A DNA stretch of 64,000 nucleotides from a virus. Taxonomy: Duplodnaviria > Caudoviricetes. The position numbers and the translations under genes are program-made. Positions 18,223-28,871 of this stretch are shown here, piece after piece; position 1 is the stretch's first letter, and each line of letters starts with the position of its first letter. Location: positions 64,001 through 128,000 of the IMG/VR virus record IMGVR_UViG_3300021426_000064; one strand, written 5' to 3'. The notes under the pieces were generated by a model. It did no database searches. It was given only the letters and a program-made list of their open reading frames with translations, and was not told the DNA's origin.

Positions 18223-18747
18223 ATGCTAGATTTAGAAATGACGGACAATGGAGATCTTGCATGGTCTTCGGTGTCGAGCTCGGGCGCTTTTCATTTAAGG
18301 TTTGCGCTGGCAGATTACAAAACGCAGCATATACATTTTCTTTGTAGGCCGACAAGCCGTTTGCAAAACAAACATCGCAAGGGGCAGCGCATTCGCTTCT
18401 GTTTTGCGGAACCAGGAGAAGAGTTTAAGGTACAAACCGGCTTGGTTCAGAATGAAGATGAACGACTACAAGCACTCTACATTGCACTTCGCACAGAGCT
18501 TGGCGATGTAAATGACGATACGGTGGGTTCTGATTTCTATAAAGAGGCTCACCATATCATAGCAGATGCTAATGATTTATCGACTATCCGTGATAAAGCT
18601 GCGGAAGTAGTTGAACGCTTCTTTCCGGGCTCAGTCCTCGAAGCTGAATACTCAATATGTCCAGAGGCAAAAAACTTTAAGTATCAGTCAGTGAAGTTTA
18701 CAATAAAAGATAAAGACAACGAGGTTGTAGCTTCGTTTGTATTCTGA
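18223..18747 (+). CDS. Putative baseplate wedge/sheath initiator (gp25/XkdS-like)
   Basis: MLDLEMTDNGDL N-terminus and LQALYIALRTELGD...VGSDF pattern; position in the baseplate cluster. Confidence 0.55.
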   Translation: MLDLEMTDNGDLAWSSVSSSGAFHLRFALADYKTQHIHFLCRPTSRLQNKHRKGQRIRFCFAEPGEEFKVQTGLVQNEDERLQALYIALRTELGDVNDDTVGSDFYKEAHHIIADANDLSTIRDKAAEVVERFFPGSVLEAEYSICPEAKNFKYQSVKFTIKDKDNEVVASFVF

Positions 18748-18773
18748 GAGAGCGAAAGCTCTCTATTTTTTTT
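18747..18773 (+). terminator. Intrinsic terminator insulating the NAD operon from upstream transcription
   Basis: AGAGAGC-GAAA-GCTCTCT followed by ATTTTTTTT. Confidence 0.8.
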
Positions 18774-18803
18774 GAAAAAATTTGCTTTGCTGTAAAAATA
18801 GTC

Positions 18804-18832
18804 TTGACAAATGTGGTAATGTGTACTACGAT
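18804..18832 (+). promoter_or_regulatory. Sigma-A/70-type promoter of the NAD salvage operon
   Basis: TTGACA (18804-18809), 17-bp spacer, TACGAT (18827-18832); AT-rich upstream. Confidence 0.8.
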
Positions 18833-18855
18833 TAATGTAGTACAAGATACCACAA
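18811..18855. promoter_or_regulatory. Two tandem putative NrtR operators
   Basis: ATGTG-GT-AATGTGT-AC-TACGA (18811-18831) and ATGTA-GT-ACAAGAT-AC-CACAA (18835-18855). Both are imperfect 21-bp palindromes with the GT-N7-AC core known for NrtR sites; they overlap the promoter spacer/-10 and +1. Confidence 0.7.
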
Positions 18856-18871
18856 AAAAGAGGTTGATTAT

Positions 18872-19657
18872 ATGTCAGATACACAAGAAGAGAAGGAATT
18901 TCTCAAGAACTACGATGCGGCACAGTATGAAAGACCATCCGTAACAGCAGATGTTGTTATTTTTACTGTAGACAGAGATAACGAATTAAGTATCCTGTTG
19001 ATAAAGCGCGGAGGGCATCCTTTTAAGGACCATTGGGCTATCCCAGGTGGATTTCTTGAGGCTGGAAAAGAATCCATTGATGAGGCTGCCGCCCGCGAGC
19101 TGTACGAGGAAACGGGAATAAAGGTTTCTGATGGCATCGAACTTAGGCAGCTTATCACAGTTGGTGAACCGGATCGCGACCCGAGAACACATGTCGTGAG
19201 TGTAGTTTATACGGCATTGGTCCCCAAAGGACTTCTACATATAAAAGCAGGGGATGATGCAAAAGAAGCGCAGCTTTTTAAAATTCGCAATGGGTTCGAC
19301 GAAGAAGGAAACCGTAGGATGCGCCTTGTTGGTGATAAGATTTCACTTACCACGGATAACCTTGCATTCGATCATGCCCGTATTGTGAAAATTGCATTGA
19401 AAAGGCTCAAAGGACGGTTAGCATATACGGACGACGCCTTCGCAATGCTCAAGAATAAAAAATGTTTTAAGATTTACGAGCTCAAGAAAATTCACGAAAC
19501 CATTTTACAAAAAGTAATCGACAGAGCGAATTTCCGTAAAATGTTTATTCGAAACTTTGTCGATACCGGTAAGGTTAGAGAATTAAAAAAAGATGAAGTT
19601 GAAGGTGCTGTAAAAACAGCAATGTATATGTATGTTGGAGGAAATGAGCATGAGTAA
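18872..19657 (+). CDS. nrtR: NrtR-family regulator (Nudix ADP-ribose domain + winged HTH)
   Basis: PSVTADVVIF, Nudix box GGFLEAGKESIDEAAARELYEETGI, RDPR, LAFDH, C-terminal wHTH FKIYELKKIHETIL...DRANFRK. Confidence 0.9.
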   Translation: MSDTQEEKEFLKNYDAAQYERPSVTADVVIFTVDRDNELSILLIKRGGHPFKDHWAIPGGFLEAGKESIDEAAARELYEETGIKVSDGIELRQLITVGEPDRDPRTHVVSVVYTALVPKGLLHIKAGDDAKEAQLFKIRNGFDEEGNRRMRLVGDKISLTTDNLAFDHARIVKIALKRLKGRLAYTDDAFAMLKNKKCFKIYELKKIHETILQKVIDRANFRKMFIRNFVDTGKVRELKKDEVEGAVKTAMYMYVGGNEHE

Positions 19658-20201
19658 AAAAGTATTGATTGTTGTTGACATGCAGAACGATTTTATCGAT
19701 GGTGCACTGGGCACTAAAGAAGCTGAGGCTATTGTCGATAACGTAGCCAAGAAGGTTGCGGAGGCAAAAAAGAACGGCGATATCATTATCTTCACGCAGG
19801 ATACACATACGGAAGATTACCTCAACACGCAGGAAGGTAAGAATCTGCCGGTGCCTCACTGTATTAAAGGAACAGATGGCTGGAAGATAACCAACAAGAT
19901 TGACATTCCTGAAAAATGTCTGACGTACGAAAAAGGTTCCTTCGGCTCTGGTGAACTTGGCAAAGACCTTTCCAACAGCGAAGGAGAAATCAGTGCGATT
20001 GAATTCGTTGGGCTCTGCACAGATATCTGCGTACTGTCCAACGCGGTAATTGCAAAAGCGGCACTGCCGGAAGTTCCCATCACAGTAGACGCCGCATGCT
20101 GCGCGGGCGTAACACCGAAGAGCCATGATGAAGCTCTTGGCGCATTGCAGATGATTCAGGTAAAAGTCGCAAACCAAGGGCAGGAACCCTGGAGGGCATA
20201 A
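19650..20201 (+). CDS. pncA: Nicotinamidase (isochorismatase family)
   Basis: LIVVDMQNDF, DTH, PHC, EKGSFG, VGLCTDICV. Start reassigned to ATG 19650, 8 nt after GGAGG. Confidence 0.88.
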   Translation: MSKKVLIVVDMQNDFIDGALGTKEAEAIVDNVAKKVAEAKKNGDIIIFTQDTHTEDYLNTQEGKNLPVPHCIKGTDGWKITNKIDIPEKCLTYEKGSFGSGELGKDLSNSEGEISAIEFVGLCTDICVLSNAVIAKAALPEVPITVDAACCAGVTPKSHDEALGALQMIQVKVANQGQEPWRA

Positions 20202-20202
20202 A

Positions 20203-20739
20203 ATGCGCGTCGGAATTTACTTTGGTTGCTTTATCCCGCTTCATAAAGGACATGAAGCAATAATTAAAACAGCTCTAGCCGAAAATGACCATTTAATTCT
20301 GGGCGTTTGTGGGTATGATAATGACCGCGGCCATGATTATATTCCGTTTCGGCAGCGTATCAATCTTATATCAAAGATATATGGCCGGCGCAAGAATATG
20401 ACTCTGGCGGTTGTAGATGATAAGAAAATCGGCCTCACGGGAACGTTTAGTTTAAGCGCCTGGGAAACTTGGTGCAGCGAATTATTCCGAAACTCTGGGT
20501 TTGACCCCGGTGATAAGGCAAATCAATATGTCTGGTATTCTGGCGAAAAGGATTATCTGGAGAAGATACAGCAGTTATATCCTAGCCACGAAATGCGGTA
20601 CATTTCCAGAGATGTGATTCCGATTTCGGGAACAGAAATCAGAGCAAATACCGGTAAACATATCACGCATATTAATCCGTTCTTTGCTTCATACTTAGCA
20701 GAACGGGGATTATTGGAGGATAACGAATATGAAGTTTAA
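20203..20739 (+). CDS. NMN/NaMN adenylyltransferase, NadR/NadM-like (HxGH nucleotidyltransferase)
   Basis: GCFIPLHKGH and PISGTEIR signature motifs; context within the NAD operon. Confidence 0.8.
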   Translation: MRVGIYFGCFIPLHKGHEAIIKTALAENDHLILGVCGYDNDRGHDYIPFRQRINLISKIYGRRKNMTLAVVDDKKIGLTGTFSLSAWETWCSELFRNSGFDPGDKANQYVWYSGEKDYLEKIQQLYPSHEMRYISRDVIPISGTEIRANTGKHITHINPFFASYLAERGLLEDNEYEV

Positions 20740-21946
20740 TCAGATTATCAATTCTCTTTTAGAAACCGACCTTTACAAGTTCAGCATGGGACAGGCCATC
20801 TTCCATCAGGCCAGCGAATATGAAACCACATGGTCTTTTAAATGCCGCAATAAAGACGTATTCTTTACGCCGGAAATGGTTGAAGAAATCCGTGAGCAGA
20901 TAAAAGCATTCTGTGGCCTGCGTTTTACGGAAGACGAGCTTCAGTATCTGGCCGGAATCAAATGGCTGAAGAAGTCTTATATCAACCATCTGCGCCTGTG
21001 GCGGCCCAATTTTGAGGATTTTGATATCAAGGCGGGCGGCGAAAAGGGTCTTATTCTTGAGGCCAAAGGTACGCTTCTGGACACATCCATGTATGAAATT
21101 CCGACTCTGGCCATTGTTAACGAGGTATATTACCGGTTCCGTGACGACTACGCAATGCTGGTAGAAGATTCCAAGGCTCGTACACGGGCAAAAGCAGAAA
21201 AGATTCAGATGGGCAAGTATTGGCTGCCGGTATTCTCTGAATTTGGCCTGCGCCGCCGCCTTTGTGCAGAAGCACAGGAATTTGCTGTAGAAACATTCTC
21301 CAAGCTGGATTGTCATGATGTCCTGCGTTCCTATTTTGTTGGCACCTCCAACGTTTATCTGGCCAAGAAATATGGCGTAACGCCGGTAGGCACGATGGCA
21401 CATGAATGGATTATGTGCATGGGGCAGGGCAACCATTTGTATAATCCTTCCTACTCCAACAAGGTAGCATTGGAAGCTTGGGTAAGAGAGTACGGCGTAG
21501 ATAATGGTATCGCACTTACCGATACGATTACGACGGACTGCTTCCTGCGCGACTTCAACAAGACGCTGGCTACGCTCTTCAGTGGTGTACGTCATGACTC
21601 CGGTGACCCGTTTGTATGGGGCGACAAGATGATTGACCATTACACTCGTCTTGGCATTGACCCGATGACGAAGACCCTGCTGTTCTCTGACTCTCTGAAC
21701 TTTGAGAAGGCAGACAAAATTGCCCACTATTTCGAGGGCAAGGCCAAGGTCGCTTTCGGCATTGGTACTTATATTGCCAACGACACCTATGCTGAGCCCT
21801 TGAACATTGTCATGAAGGTGACGGAATGCAATGGCAGCCCGGTTGCAAAAATCTCCGATACCGCTGGTAAGGGGATGTGCAAGAGTCAGGAATATGTGGA
21901 CTACTTGCAGAGAGCTATTGACTGGCGCTTGAAGAACAAAGACTAA
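20729..21946 (+). CDS. pncB: Nicotinate phosphoribosyltransferase
   Basis: LLETDLYKFSM, EFGLRRR, GTSNV, GTMAHEW (phospho-His), GVRHDSGDP, FSDSL, FGIGT, LNIVMK, KISD. Confidence 0.95.
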   Translation: MKFNQIINSLLETDLYKFSMGQAIFHQASEYETTWSFKCRNKDVFFTPEMVEEIREQIKAFCGLRFTEDELQYLAGIKWLKKSYINHLRLWRPNFEDFDIKAGGEKGLILEAKGTLLDTSMYEIPTLAIVNEVYYRFRDDYAMLVEDSKARTRAKAEKIQMGKYWLPVFSEFGLRRRLCAEAQEFAVETFSKLDCHDVLRSYFVGTSNVYLAKKYGVTPVGTMAHEWIMCMGQGNHLYNPSYSNKVALEAWVREYGVDNGIALTDTITTDCFLRDFNKTLATLFSGVRHDSGDPFVWGDKMIDHYTRLGIDPMTKTLLFSDSLNFEKADKIAHYFEGKAKVAFGIGTYIANDTYAEPLNIVMKVTECNGSPVAKISDTAGKGMCKSQEYVDYLQRAIDWRLKNKD

Positions 21947-22012
21947 GGGGTGTGGCTCCTCGCTGTTTAGTATGGGTATAGTATAGATATATATACAGAA
22001 AGGACAATCGCT

Positions 22013-22921
22013 TTGAATATCAAATGCTCATATATTGGTTGTGAAGAAAATGCTACATGCATCACAACTGTAATGAATAGACAAATCCCATCATGCGAAC
22101 ATCATAAAGATAAATTTAACATCATTGAAGGTACATCAAACGTTTTGAAATGTGGTCCTGAATTTGATGCAAAGAAAGATAAAGAAAAGATTATCAGCTT
22201 TTTGAGAAACTGGTTTGCCGAAAACGGCACACCGGAAACAAAAGCTGTGATAGGCATTTCCGGAGGCAAGGACTCTTCTATTGCTGCAGCACTTTGCGTA
22301 GAAGCACTGGGGAAAGATAGTGTCATCGGAGTTCTTATGCCCAATGGCATTCAGCCAGACATTGATGATGCGCTTGAGGTGGTAAAACATCTCGGTATCA
22401 AATACCGCATTGTCAATATTGAATCGTCGTACAAAGCCATGCTTAAAGCGCTGCAATATACCGAGGCTAAAGTTGATAACAACTTCCATTTTTCAGTTAC
22501 AGACCAGCTTCTTCAGAATCTTGCGCCAAGGTTACGGATGGCAACGTTATATGCTATAGCGCAGGGAGTAGAAGGCGGTGGCCGCGTTATCAATACCTGC
22601 AACCGTTCTGAAGACTATGTAGGTTATTCGACAAAATTCGGTGATAGCGCCGGCGACGTTTCCCCGCTTGGCGCTTATACCGTAGATGAAGTCCTGGCCA
22701 TTGGAGCACTTTTGGACATTCCGGAAAGGCTGGTACACAAAACTCCTTCCGACGGTCTCTGCGGCAAAACCGATGAAGACAACCTGGGCTTTACTTATGC
22801 CGTTTTAGACAAGTATATAAAAACCGGCGAATGTGAGGATGAACTGGTGCAGAAGCGAATTGATGAGCTGCATTATATCAATCTTCACAAACTCAAGCCA
22901 ATGCCAATGGTTAAGCGGTAA
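22013..22921 (+). CDS. nadE: NH3-dependent NAD+ synthetase with Cys/His-rich N-terminal extension
   Basis: IGISGGKDSS, NLAPRLRMATLY, TCNRSEDYVGYSTKFGD, KTPSDGL, TDEDNLGFTY; no glutaminase domain; RBS AGAAAGGA before the TTG start. Confidence 0.93.
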   Translation: MNIKCSYIGCEENATCITTVMNRQIPSCEHHKDKFNIIEGTSNVLKCGPEFDAKKDKEKIISFLRNWFAENGTPETKAVIGISGGKDSSIAAALCVEALGKDSVIGVLMPNGIQPDIDDALEVVKHLGIKYRIVNIESSYKAMLKALQYTEAKVDNNFHFSVTDQLLQNLAPRLRMATLYAIAQGVEGGGRVINTCNRSEDYVGYSTKFGDSAGDVSPLGAYTVDEVLAIGALLDIPERLVHKTPSDGLCGKTDEDNLGFTYAVLDKYIKTGECEDELVQKRIDELHYINLHKLKPMPMVKR

Positions 22922-22926
22922 TCAGC

Positions 22927-22962
22927 AAAAAGCTTCTATCGAATGATAGAGGCTTTTTATTT
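22927..22962 (+). terminator. Intrinsic terminator ending the NAD operon (possibly bidirectional)
   Basis: AAAAAGCTTCTATC-GAAT-GATAGAGGCTTTTT. Confidence 0.8.
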
Positions 22963-23834: not shown

Positions 23835-26800
23835 ATGAGCTTGTCTATGGAATCTGTCTTGCCGAGCATGAAGCGAAGCTTCCCCAGCTGGTCAGACATT
23901 CGTAAGCGCACAGACAAATCGATTGGCGGCGCGCTGGTAAAATCATATGCAAGAGAAGCAGACTATATTCAGGATGCGATAAATGACTATCGTAAGATAT
24001 TCTTCCTGTTAAACTACAAGGGACACGAAGATGAGTTTGCGGACTATCTTTATCTCGCAACTGTGGGTAAACAGGATGCAATTAATATAGTTGGCTTCGA
24101 ATGCAGAGTGACCAAAGACGACAACGAATTTTACGGCAACATGGACAAGATGGCCTTATATCGGGATGGTTATCTTATGTTCCATGAAAAAGTCCTGCCA
24201 GAGGGCGCCGAGCAGAAAACCATCCAATACCAGATTGAAAGTGGCAGTGTCTACGAGGTAGAACTTCATAAAGAGCATATCTGGAACGCCTTTGATGAAT
24301 TCGCCTTATTTGCCGGATTAACACGGTATGGCAACGAAACAAACAAAGAGCTTGCCGAAAGAACCGTCCAGGTTTTCAAGGAGTTCCCAAATCCGACCCG
24401 AACCGGTATTGGTAACGCTATACAGGATGCAATAACTCCTCACGATACCATTCTTGACGAAGATATCGATGTTTATAAAATCAGTGATGAAAAGTTCGAT
24501 CTTGGCCGTGAGGATCACAAAGCGATATACGAAGATTTGGTTCAGCTGAACAGAGATATCTTCCGAGCCAAAACATGGAATCGCGATACATGGGAACATG
24601 GCTTCCAAAAGACGGATTATATCCCTCATGCATGGGATGCTCCGATGGAAGCCTTCCAAAACGGTGTAGGGTATAACGATTCGCTGCGGACGGACTATAT
24701 TAAACGATTAGGACAGAGCGAGACAACAGATATTGAAGTCAACGCCTATAAAAAAGACTTCGAAAAAATCCGCCAATATATTGGCCGCACAAATATAGAG
24801 GCGTCTATCCAGTTAACGTTAACTAAATATACTGATGTGGTTAATCCGAAAAATGTGGAATTCTGTATCAGGGCATATGACGTTCTCAAGATACCTAACC
24901 CGAAAGATATTCATGTGCTTGGTACGAGAAAACAGAATGGCGAAAAACGCTACTATGTGGATGACCTTGCAACGGAAACGCATGGCGTAACCCGTGTCGC
25001 AAATAATAGGCTGGAGAAGAATACTTCATACAAGCTTCGTTTTACACCAAAAGATACGTTCTCAGGAATGAGTGTTGAAAAATGCAGACTGGCGTATGAC
25101 GGCGGCGATAAGGACTTGCGTAGGGAATATTCTTATTACAAGTTGAAAGACGGCAGTATTGTAAATCAGAATGTTGCTGCACATATCACATCTACATCAC
25201 AAGTTACAACAAACCATAATATTGAAGATTGCAGTACAGGGGTCACTGTTGGCCACAGTGATACAAAAGGGTCGTTCGGAGTAGATGTTACCGGCATGGC
25301 CAAAGAAATGATTAACTATAGTGTAAGCTGCCGGCGTATTGATATCACGTCGTCAAGCTATGTAGAAGGGCGCAACGGATTTGAGTTATCCTCAGACGGT
25401 AAGTCACTTTTTAATAATCGCCCAGATTCTTTGGGACAGATTATTATTGGAGGCCAGGGCAGGGAACTTAGCTGCAACTCATACTCTTTTACACTGGAAG
25501 CTTCTGCAATCCCTGCGCTCCAGGGGGCAATAACGGTTACGGAAATCGTTGATGGACAGATAACACAAATGACTTATCGTCAACCACAAGAAGTGGTTCG
25601 CGAATTTAAGAAGCGCTCGGAAGTTCAGGTTATTATCCAGAAATATGGTCAGAACCCTGTGAAAATCAAGAACATCGCTATGGCAAGCTATGATGTTCAC
25701 ATCGGCATGTCTGATGGCACACCTTTGGTGGTGGCCGGGAAAAATACGCGATTGCCGGAAAATGTGGATGGAAAAATACTCACGGTAGAACTTATTCCGT
25801 ACACAGCGGCATATCCTGTACTTGAATATCTGCATATTGGCGGAAGTTTAAAGGGCGCCCGTTACGAAATCGATTTTGATACCAACGGGAAGAATAATCC
25901 GGAGCTAGATATCGACACAGATTGTAACGTCACACTGTATAAAAAAGTGGGTGGCAGTAGTGTTTTAGTTGGAAGTGAAAATAGGTATACCACAAAGGCT
26001 GTATTCAGAAATACCTCTTCCTCCTCGTTTGGGCAAATTGTTTTAGACTTGGGAAATTTTGCTTCTATATCCAGTGCAAGCCGAAAGATTAATGACCAGT
26101 ACAGTGGTACGAATAAGAAGTATATCGAGCTGGCTCCCGGCGAAGAAATTTTTGAGATGGACATTGCCGGCGAGGTAATCCGGCAAATTACCAATAAGCC
26201 GTTAACAGAATACCTGTTTGGTGCAAATACGCAAAATAAAGAGGTATATGCTACCCGGGGGACAAGCGGGTACATTTTAGTAAAAGACGTTGCAAGTGGC
26301 CAGATAAAAAAAGTAACAATTCCGTATGCGGATTTGGATGGCCGTGCTGACACGTATCAGTTAACAGGATTGCCAAGAGAGCTATCCGCAGAATTTGTGA
26401 CATCCAATGGCGAGATCAGGGAAGTATCCAATTCCGGTAATGGTAGCGTATTTGACCATCTTGGTATTGCTTATAAGCAAGCATCAGAATATGTTGCCTA
26501 TAACACGGTTTCAATGATCAAAGAAAAACAGGCCGGTGTTGAAATGGTTAATACATTTACACCGGTTATGTCTTTGACGGAACTGCGATACTATGTTATT
26601 GCCGCCACAAAAAACATTAGTGACAACATGGTGGTATTTGGTACATCAAAAGATAATTGGAGTCTGGGTGTTGATCCTAAAGGAATAGATGTCAGCACGA
26701 CGCTGGAAACAAAGAATGCGGATTCTTGGATCATTAGTATTAACAATGTCAGCAACAGATATATTCTTGCAAATGAAGTGCCATTAGAGGAAAGATACTT

Positions 26801-28871
26801 CATTGAACAGGATGGGCTATATCACGACCTTCGCGAATATATGGTTACAACAGAACCCGGCTTAAAAATTAACTACGAGATTGAGCCAGGAATCGAAGAA
26901 AATATAACCGTAAAGAGTAAGCTGGTAAATAAGCTAAGATACTCTAATATAAACGAAATTAAAATCTACCAAGGGACAGCAATAATTAGCAGCGGTTTTG
27001 AAGTGCTAAAAGATGAAGGACTTATTGTCTGGTCGGATGGGCGGTATTTGGGTGTACCTTTGAAGGTTGTTTATTCGATAAAAAGACCGTCCACAGTATC
27101 TTATACCAGGGAGTATGAAGACAAGCTGTACAAACTGGTTAGTTTTTCGGCTGAAGCCTACAAGCTTATCGGGACAAAAGTTTATAAAAACTGTCCAGAT
27201 GGCGCACAGTATACCCTTCGCTTCGAAGAAGAGCCCGATAAGATAATCACGTCCTGCACAAACGCTTCGTTTAATACATCTGTGCTGAACGGAGTATTGA
27301 CGGCGGCCCGAGTAACAGATGAGGACAAGATAGCCGTACACAATGGTTACATTTATGACCAAGGGCGGGAATACTATTTCTTTAGCGACGTATTCAATGA
27401 CCGTGTTGATGTGTTCAGTAATATCGAAATGCATGATGTTACGCGTCTTAATGGGGAACTATTATTCCACATGCGCTCTACAAACTACCTGCCCTATTCT
27501 AGTATGAAAACGTCTGTTATGGCAGACCTCTGTTCTATTGACCTAACTAAGAGGCTCCCGCCGGGGATAAGCAAGGCTAATCATTTAACTGCATGTGAGG
27601 GGTACAACCTTTGGCACACGGTTAATATGAAAATTGCTTTGGCGGAAAATGGGCTGAACGGCTATGCTTTGGCATTAAAATCTCTCGATAAAACTGGGGG
27701 ATATGCAGCATTAGATGTCACTTCTTTTTATGTCGAAGGGAATGCTATATCTCTTCAAGTTACCGGCGATTTACAGGCGGAGATTGTCAAAGAAACACAA
27801 CTGGACGGCCTCACAATGACCAAGTCTGTATTCCTTGAAAGAGAAAATGGGAAAACGTTGGTTATGGATGATGATATTGCGTATACCATCTGCGGGGAGC
27901 CAGAAAAGAATTGCCGATATTTTATAGTTCTTTCTGGCACAAACGGCGTCATTGACGATCTTGTATCTTTGCCATATGTGGATTTAAGGGCCATGAAAGC
28001 TACGCACAAAAAGAATATAAGCAAACTGAACTTTAACATAACTGAGAAAATGCCAGAGAAGTATGAATACGACCTCGAATTTGATGTCGTAGGTGCTTCG
28101 TACAAAGACCTCAATATTCACAGTCAGACAAGGGAAATTGAAACCACGGCAGATGTAGAATATGGACTCACGCTTGTGGAATCCGTAGACCTTGAAAAGT
28201 GCATGATTTCAAGAATGCAGATAACAAAAGGTACGATTGTGGCTACACTTAATGAGGGGTACGCAAAGACGCCCATATTCTTTACACATACGAAATCTTC
28301 AGTGTACGCCTTGTATGTAAAAATCAATGATATCATTGAAGGCCGCTACAAAGGGTTTACTATAAAGCTCTATGGCTCTAATACGAGAAGCGGTGGATAC
28401 ACCCTGCTTGCAACAGAGGAGAATACAAACATTCTTTCAATTCCCCACAATCTCGTACGAAACTACTACTATGTGGAAGTTATTGCTGATAAAAATAAAG
28501 TAATTCATAGCATAGATGTTTACGCAAGATATGCTGAAACCGAAGACGGCGGAAAGCTTGCGCCAACGAGAATTGAAAAAGGCACGTTTATTAGCAAGAT
28601 ATATGACGTTGGAGAAACAGCAAATTATATCCTCCAGGATATTGACTATGTGACAAACAACCATGACGACGATATTGAGTTTTATGTCCGCGGCGTGCGT
28701 GAGGGGAAGAACAGTTTAGTATTTACCCCTTGGAGAAAATACGTGGCAAACGCAGATAAGTTAAAACAGATTCGCTATGATGGTTATTCTCTGTTCCAGT
28801 TTAAGATAAATGTCAATAGCCCCGCAGCAACCCTTAAGGTGAATAAATTTAGAATGGTGGTCGCATCGTAA
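23835..28871 (+). CDS. Large putative baseplate/tail structural protein (1678 aa)
   Basis: Long ORF directly after baseplate J; beta-rich; N-terminal WNAFDEFALFAGLTRYGNETNKEL resembles wedge proteins. Confidence 0.65.
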   Translation: MSLSMESVLPSMKRSFPSWSDIRKRTDKSIGGALVKSYAREADYIQDAINDYRKIFFLLNYKGHEDEFADYLYLATVGKQDAINIVGFECRVTKDDNEFYGNMDKMALYRDGYLMFHEKVLPEGAEQKTIQYQIESGSVYEVELHKEHIWNAFDEFALFAGLTRYGNETNKELAERTVQVFKEFPNPTRTGIGNAIQDAITPHDTILDEDIDVYKISDEKFDLGREDHKAIYEDLVQLNRDIFRAKTWNRDTWEHGFQKTDYIPHAWDAPMEAFQNGVGYNDSLRTDYIKRLGQSETTDIEVNAYKKDFEKIRQYIGRTNIEASIQLTLTKYTDVVNPKNVEFCIRAYDVLKIPNPKDIHVLGTRKQNGEKRYYVDDLATETHGVTRVANNRLEKNTSYKLRFTPKDTFSGMSVEKCRLAYDGGDKDLRREYSYYKLKDGSIVNQNVAAHITSTSQVTTNHNIEDCSTGVTVGHSDTKGSFGVDVTGMAKEMINYSVSCRRIDITSSSYVEGRNGFELSSDGKSLFNNRPDSLGQIIIGGQGRELSCNSYSFTLEASAIPALQGAITVTEIVDGQITQMTYRQPQEVVREFKKRSEVQVIIQKYGQNPVKIKNIAMASYDVHIGMSDGTPLVVAGKNTRLPENVDGKILTVELIPYTAAYPVLEYLHIGGSLKGARYEIDFDTNGKNNPELDIDTDCNVTLYKKVGGSSVLVGSENRYTTKAVFRNTSSSSFGQIVLDLGNFASISSASRKINDQYSGTNKKYIELAPGEEIFEMDIAGEVIRQITNKPLTEYLFGANTQNKEVYATRGTSGYILVKDVASGQIKKVTIPYADLDGRADTYQLTGLPRELSAEFVTSNGEIREVSNSGNGSVFDHLGIAYKQASEYVAYNTVSMIKEKQAGVEMVNTFTPVMSLTELRYYVIAATKNISDNMVVFGTSKDNWSLGVDPKGIDVSTTLETKNADSWIISINNVSNRYILANEVPLEERYFIEQDGLYHDLREYMVTTEPGLKINYEIEPGIEENITVKSKLVNKLRYSNINEIKIYQGTAIISSGFEVLKDEGLIVWSDGRYLGVPLKVVYSIKRPSTVSYTREYEDKLYKLVSFSAEAYKLIGTKVYKNCPDGAQYTLRFEEEPDKIITSCTNASFNTSVLNGVLTAARVTDEDKIAVHNGYIYDQGREYYFFSDVFNDRVDVFSNIEMHDVTRLNGELLFHMRSTNYLPYSSMKTSVMADLCSIDLTKRLPPGISKANHLTACEGYNLWHTVNMKIALAENGLNGYALALKSLDKTGGYAALDVTSFYVEGNAISLQVTGDLQAEIVKETQLDGLTMTKSVFLERENGKTLVMDDDIAYTICGEPEKNCRYFIVLSGTNGVIDDLVSLPYVDLRAMKATHKKNISKLNFNITEKMPEKYEYDLEFDVVGASYKDLNIHSQTREIETTADVEYGLTLVESVDLEKCMISRMQITKGTIVATLNEGYAKTPIFFTHTKSSVYALYVKINDIIEGRYKGFTIKLYGSNTRSGGYTLLATEENTNILSIPHNLVRNYYYVEVIADKNKVIHSIDVYARYAETEDGGKLAPTRIEKGTFISKIYDVGETANYILQDIDYVTNNHDDDIEFYVRGVREGKNSLVFTPWRKYVANADKLKQIRYDGYSLFQFKINVNSPAATLKVNKFRMVVAS

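Follow-up and report, generated by a model that had tools for sequence, protein, structure and literature searches.

Predicted tandem NrtR operators overlap the promoter of an NAD salvage cassette in a large phage

The DNA analyzed here (the window, 64,000 nucleotides in full) comprises bases 64001-128000 of a 184-kb IMG/VR virus record with a CheckV completeness estimate of 78%. Its identity as a phage rests on the IMG/VR virus record, on a large terminase (PHROG 2 match), and on matches to collagen-like tail-fibre proteins, all encoded in the same record. Pfam searches of this 78%-complete record for Terminase_6N and Phage_sheath_1 gave no match, and blastn against a phage collection gave no more than two matches, both weak and partial. 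Near the terminase gene, at a distance of a few kb, lie a ParA-like (PHROG 164, 6e-51) and a ParB-like gene (L101:12144-14124; about 26143-28123 of the record), which hint at plasmid-like partition of the phage genome.

Five tightly packed genes in the order nrtR-pncA-NMNAT-pncB-nadE make up an NAD cassette on the plus strand, the strand that also carries all of the large genes surrounding it. On the upstream side, an intrinsic terminator (18747..18775, plus strand), formed by a 7-bp GC-containing stem and a run of eight Ts, closes the gene for a 174-aa protein and insulates the cassette; its stem is kept in sister phages with compensatory changes. A sigma-70-type promoter (18804..18832, plus strand) and two predicted NrtR operators (18813..18829 and 18837..18853) follow, and a ribosome site (AGAGG, 18859-18863) precedes the nrtR ATG at 18872. 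The nrtR gene (18872..19657) encodes 261 aa, with a Nudix domain (box at nt 19046-19120) and a C-terminal winged helix, the putative recognition helix of which lies at nt 19520-19558. Its stop codon is overlapped by the start of pncA (19650..20201), which encodes a nicotinamidase of the isochorismatase family (Pfam PF00857, 3e-25). Next come a nucleotide adenylyltransferase gene of the NadR NMNAT-domain type (20203..20739; Pfam CTP_transf_like, 2e-7), the nicotinate phosphoribosyltransferase gene pncB (20729..21946; Pfam NAPRTase, 2e-67; NF003704, 2e-141, above cut-off), and the NAD synthase gene nadE (22013..22921; Pfam NAD_synthase, 8e-52; TIGR00552, 1e-49). A second intrinsic terminator (22927..22962, plus strand) closes the cassette with a 14-bp stem and a T-run (−17.6 kcal/mol, z −4.5; none of 200 shuffles was equally stable). 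The cassette holds no PnuC, Nampt, or PRPS-like genes.

Two of the enzyme genes have features of their own. The third gene of the cassette had originally been named nadD, a name that we replace: the NadR NMNAT domain (TIGR01526, 7e-22) fits it better than NadD models do, with the match confined to model positions 1-158 of 325, which is the NMNAT half of NadR alone. It had no matching counterpart in the Selenomonas-type loci compared below (L005-L016), and we take it to be a phage-side addition to the operon. The same order, pncA-NMNAT-pncB, is found in an unrelated 253-kb viral contig (L106/L107), where it follows a Clostridia-type NrtR and two sites 24 bp apart, and this arrangement may be a phage-side trait. 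Whether the cassette makes up a complete pathway depends on which substrate the NMNAT uses, NMN or NaMN. The nadE frame, from its TTG start at 22013, begins with a 48-aa Cys/His-rich N-terminal extension; the conserved part starts near 22156, and relatives align from residue 49. This extension may be a small zinc-binding module or what is left of an inserted element. It is encoded by an insertion of about 202-214 bp between pncB and nadE (21947-22160 of the window) that is peculiar to this phage and single-copy in the record; the insertion is absent from a 98%-identical relative (L001), and contigs of three sequencing runs skip it.

The promoter proposed in the original prediction, TTGACA-17-TACGAT directly before nrtR, is present, with TTGACA at 18804-18809, a 17-nt spacer, and TACGAT at 18827-18832 (10 of 12 matches). 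So are the two palindromes with a GT-N7-AC core, 24 bp apart, which are real, though clearest as 17-mers. Site A is GTGGTAatgtgTACTAC (18813-18829, centre 18821) and site B is GTAGTAcaagaTACCAC (18837-18853, centre 18845), 24 bp apart from centre to centre. Both fit the pattern GTRGTA-N5-TACYAC, each with five of six half-site pairs matched and the GT-N7-AC core that Rodionov et al. gave for NrtR sites in 2008 (PMC2330246). Taken as the 21-mers first proposed (18811-18831 and 18835-18855), pairing falls to 5 of 10 positions in site A and 6 of 10 in site B. The coordinates also bear out the claimed placement over the −35/−10 spacer, the −10, and the +1: site A lies across the spacer and reaches into the first part of the −10, and site B takes in both the predicted +1 (about 18839-18840) and the beginning of the leader.

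These sites are rare in the genome. Allowing at most one mismatch, GTRGTA-N5-TACYAC occurs three times in the window, against 0.22 expected, and none of 100 shuffles reached three; as exact copies, sites A and B are the only ones in the 184-kb record. A weight matrix trained on bacterial sites alone, with phage loci excluded, ranked site B first (18.4) and site A second (12.4) over the whole record. In mononucleotide shuffles of the genome, however, the matrix maxima averaged 14.9 and reached 18.5, so that site A falls below the mean. Because site A is not significant alone, the case for operators rests on the pair, its position, and its conservation. Two weaker matrix matches 39 bp apart (147430 and 147469 of the record, outside the window) showed no promoter context and were taken as chance.

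The region could also be read as one long inverted repeat, with 18-nt arms (18812-18829 and 18837-18854, 83% complementary) and a 7-nt gap, that acts as an RNA or DNA hairpin or as the site of an unrelated factor. Two adjacent palindromes of one motif, however, inevitably combine into a longer inverted repeat. Each site is palindromic on its own in bacterial relatives, where the N5 centres and the bases between the sites vary freely. Furthermore, of the two arms, only the right one is downstream of the predicted +1, so that no RNA hairpin would form. We rejected this reading, which we regard as extremely improbable. It is instead very probable, from motif, position, and conservation, that both palindromes are operators of the phage NrtR.

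The cellular NrtRs nearest to the phage protein (67-71% identity) come from Selenomonas ruminantium and relatives, in which nrtR is the first gene of a chromosomal nrtR-pncA-pncB-nadE operon. The other phage proteins are 58-64% (PncA), 84-87% (PncB), and 67-77% (NadE) identical in amino acids to their Selenomonas counterparts. From Oscillospiraceae to Selenomonas, the bacterial control regions share one layout: the −35, a gap of 2-4 nt, site 1 holding the −10 in its right half, a gap of 7 nt, and site 2. This layout holds in Lachnospiraceae, Oscillospiraceae, and Eubacteriaceae, and many Clostridia, like Selenomonas, have the promoter with two sites 24 bp apart before nrtR. Of the 22 strict site pairs upstream of nrtR in 55 bacterial loci of the NrtR clade, 16 are exactly 24 bp apart. 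The control region of S. ruminantium S137 (L010) agrees with that of the phage in the −35 and in all 24 half-site bases, whereas the intervening bases differ. Half-sites co-vary with the recognition helix, GTA going with DR[AS]NFRK and GTC with DKPNFRR; other Selenomonas strains have GTC/GAC half-sites and the DKPNFRR helix. In some Selenomonas operons (L005, L012, and L016, upstream of nrtR), another NrtR-type site, the third, follows about 24 bp downstream, and the phage has room for only two sites before its ribosome site.

Bacterial NrtR regulons, among them published ones of comparable gene content such as that of C. acetobutylicum (PMC2330246), and the S. ruminantium operons (L005-L017) thus share with the phage unit the regulator family, the GT-N7-AC palindrome of the 21-bp class, the promoter-overlapping sites, the nrtR-headed operon, and the enzymes. 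Compared with the S. ruminantium operons, the phage unit is an insulated cassette among virion genes, has the NadR-type adenylyltransferase added between pncA and pncB, and lacks the third operator. By this comparison, the promoter, both operators, the 24-bp spacing, and a Nudix box with one extra residue (see below) are all read as inherited from the Selenomonas/Clostridia operon design, and none as a phage invention.

Three cassette-bearing phage lineages could be compared: the window together with L001 as one, L003 as the second, and L009 as the third. Among them, the stretch that runs from the −35 through site B (50 bp) shows 90-94% identity, against 53-61% for the intergenic DNA flanking it and 43-57% for the four-fold degenerate sites of nrtR. 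This indicates that the sites are under selection in the phage and are not merely recent baggage. Half-site changes are few and mostly at the degenerate R/Y positions; site B is identical in L003 and differs at one half-site position in L009. No phage relative departs from the −35 sequence, and the −10 varies within TAnnnT alone (TATGAT, TACAAT). In sister phages (L003:6754-8374, and also L004 and L092), a 432-aa open reading frame lies between nrtR and pncA, which splits the operon and leaves the operators undisturbed. Inspection by eye shows a PLMP-like N-terminus, stretches rich in arginine, and an HNH motif in its product, and the frame resembles an IscB-type or HNH nuclease gene. RNA-library contigs from two runs contain parts of a relative's operon (85-97% identity); being assembled contigs, they show neither transcription nor a start site, and the flanks that they leave uncovered carry no weight as evidence.

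The phage NrtRs group together (support 98/97), with the NrtRs of Selenomonadaceae as their sister clade, and the two are joined at 100/99 apart from Clostridia. A distant phage, L095, in which the flanking virion genes are the same, has only a 145-bp gap (L095:6856-7001) at the place of the cassette. This phage shares the virion gene order, with homologues of the 2922-, 120-, 361-, 584-, 174-, 262-, and 1678-aa proteins. Given its own promoter, a terminator on each side, its absence from L095, and the Selenomonadaceae sister clade, we read the unit as a moron-like, host-derived insertion. Gene similarity, in turn, points to Selenomonas-like bacteria as hosts of the phage. NrtR-like genes also adjoin NAD genes in about ten further viral contigs. 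Our literature search found no published report of a phage-encoded NrtR or of NrtR operators in phages.

We assign the regulator itself to the NrtR family on several lines of sequence and structure comparison, in agreement with its original identification. Residues 27-138 match the Nudix domain (Pfam PF00293, 2e-20), and the winged helix matches NrtR_WHD (PF21906) with 27.0 bits, exactly at the cut-off. The NCBIfam model for the ADPR-responsive repressor (NF050029) matches with 1.4e-38, under the equivalog cut-off of that narrow model. An Enterococcus NrtR-family structure (PDB 2fml) aligns in sequence over the full length (5e-33), and Shewanella NrtR (3gz5) aligns in two stretches, the second covering 3gz5 residues 140-212. 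An AlphaFold (AF2) model of the phage protein (pLDDT 89.5) gave full-length Foldseek matches to 2fml, AraR, 5bs6, and the soNrtR-DNA complex 3gz6, and Nudix-domain matches that include 3gz8. The linkage to NAD genes agrees with this assignment. A close parallel is Shewanella oneidensis NrtR (PMC2330246; PDB 3gz5/3gz6), an ADPR-sensitive repressor with tandem operators before prs-nadV and the same two-domain fold (target-normalised TM 0.72-0.75 in Foldseek, with about 26% identity in the structural alignment). It differs in controlling the NadV route, not PncA/PncB, and in its degenerate Nudix box, RKLAEKT, where the phage has RELYEETGI.

The phage Nudix box (residues 59-83) reads G-x6-E-x7-RELYEETGI. 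Its REUXEEXGU part is intact, and the sequence thus upholds the earlier observation of a catalytic RELYEE kept alongside a one-residue insertion: the first spacing is G-x6-E in place of the canonical GX5E, one residue longer than in 2fml and P0027. Because the G-x6-E box is common to Selenomonas and many Clostridia relatives, it is no phage-specific feature. A protein with such a box might be mainly an enzyme, a pyrophosphatase of ADPR or of a signal nucleotide, with the operators served by the NrtR of the host. The phage and Selenomonas clade conserves the intact part of the box, an NrtR protein whose box is intact can be an active enzyme (NuhA; PMC2330246), and the host has identical operators. 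However, the G-x6-E spacing departs from the canonical box, and the altered-box NrtRs that have been tested were inactive (PMC2330246, PMC6800001). The winged helix is also conserved as strongly as the Nudix core: among 64 sequences, N220, F221, and R227 are invariant and R222 is nearly so. We consider a mainly enzymatic role improbable, and return to NrtR as a repressor.

The best-supported reading of the control region is promoter occlusion with autorepression, which would be exerted by a pair of NrtR dimers on the tandem palindromes, centred 24 bp from each other. Since the bound sites would occupy the spacer, the −10, and the +1 of a promoter for the host RNA polymerase, initiation would be blocked, including that of nrtR itself. 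By analogy with characterized NrtRs, ADP-ribose, or a closely related nucleotide that is a breakdown product or intermediate of NAD, would bind the Nudix domain and release the repressor; the enzymes of the released operon would then recycle nicotinamide to NAD. We find it likely, taking this explanation as a whole, that the control region heads an autonomous transcription unit of host origin, placed among virion genes in a large rumen/gut phage, occluded by NrtR and opened by an ADPR-type effector. Furthermore, because the operator half-sites are identical to those of some S. ruminantium strains, a resident host NrtR should repress the incoming phage operon, and the phage NrtR should likewise act on the host operon. 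The matching operators make such cross-regulation between host and phage likely.

The effector of the Nudix domain is most probably ADP-ribose, again by analogy. AraR, a relative of NrtR, binds arabinose, so that ADPR is not the effector of every NrtR relative. Release by ADP-ribose has been shown for the NrtRs of Synechocystis, Shewanella, and M. smegmatis (PMC2330246, PMC6800001). It acts on soNrtR and syNrtR at 10-100 µM and is the most effective anti-repressor of those two proteins, with soNrtR also released in vitro by several other dinucleotides (PMC2330246); for MsNrtR, 50 mM ADPR was reported to be necessary (PMC6800001). With a switch of this kind, the phage would probably rebuild NAD only while NAD breaks down and, as the original prediction had it, express the operon mainly when host NADases fire.

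What the phage gains from this is a separate question. A counter-defence role is plausible, because NADase defences yield ADPR and nicotinamide (10.1101/2024.02.11.579819), the pathway starts at nicotinamide, and SIR2_2-domain genes occur in 5 of the 24 genomes of the Selenomonas genus set. In one genome of this genus (L100, G016:C10:192988-193392), the SIR2_2 domain is part of an open frame of 1006 aa, which matches DSR-type NADase defence proteins in size. In its fullest form, the cassette would be an inducible counter-defence keyed to the NAD alarm of the host. Host NrtR would silence the operon until a SIR2- or TIR-type NADase makes ADPR, whereupon host and phage salvage operons would fire together and turn nicotinamide into NAD; the 24-bp pair would give a cooperative switch, and an active Nudix site would destroy the inducer and reset the system. 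We put this full scheme forward only tentatively and think it rather unlikely in all its parts.

The same genes may serve a plainer purpose. The phage could have captured a whole bacterial operon to raise NAD for its own replication, the NrtR switch coming along and keeping the set-point of the host with no special link to NADase immunity. All elements of the switch are inherited unchanged from bacterial operons, and this homeostatic reading therefore accounts for the sequence data just as well. 'NAD-jumbo phages' with Preiss-Handler clusters have been described as metabolic boosters (PMC11662467), and SIR2_2-domain genes are present in only the 5 of 24 genomes noted above. Against it, the strong purifying selection on the switch in the phage lineages implies that the regulation as such is of importance to the phage, and the compound from which the pathway starts, nicotinamide, and the presumed inducer, ADPR, are the two products of NADase defence (10.1101/2024.02.11.579819). 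Likewise, a Pfam search of the 78%-complete record gave no match for an NAD-dependent ligase. We regard mere homeostasis as a serious possibility, if one that we would not bet on. Homeostatic and counter-defence roles do not exclude each other.

Other phages are known to rebuild or boost NAD. NARP1, NARP2, and NARP3 are likewise phage-encoded routes that rebuild NAD from products of NADase defence (10.1101/2024.02.11.579819; PMC13464706). Their defining enzyme pairs are Adps and Namat, Nampt and Nmnat, and PnuC with a NadR-like RNK-NMNAT. None of these pairs is found in the cassette, which encodes a nicotinamidase, an NMNAT-domain protein, a NAPRTase, and an NAD synthase; its chemistry, unlike that of NARP1-3, is the deamidating Preiss-Handler route via PncA, PncB, and NadE. 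The available portions of the same sources describe no transcriptional switch for NARP1-3 (10.1101/2024.02.11.579819; PMC13464706). The 'NAD-jumbo phages' with a pncB-nadD-nadE cluster, e.g., Kuafu_71 (PMC11662467), are also large gut phages with clustered Preiss-Handler genes; in that paper the word 'Nudix' is absent, and neither NrtR nor an operator is named.

Both tandem NrtR operators and, in jumbo phages, clusters of Preiss-Handler genes were thus already known, and the design of the switch is a straight copy of a known bacterial one. NARP1-3 were described as enzyme sets, and the timing of their use by the phage is not addressed in the portions of those reports available. Here, a phage keeps a metabolite-sensing repressor and its predicted operators, under clear selection, before a full nicotinamide-to-NAD route. 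This is a clean natural example of a whole regulatory unit, with promoter, operators, regulator, and enzymes, that has moved from host to phage. If the effector is ADP-ribose, a product of NADase immunity would itself turn on the counter-measure, which would be a cheap and self-limiting design.
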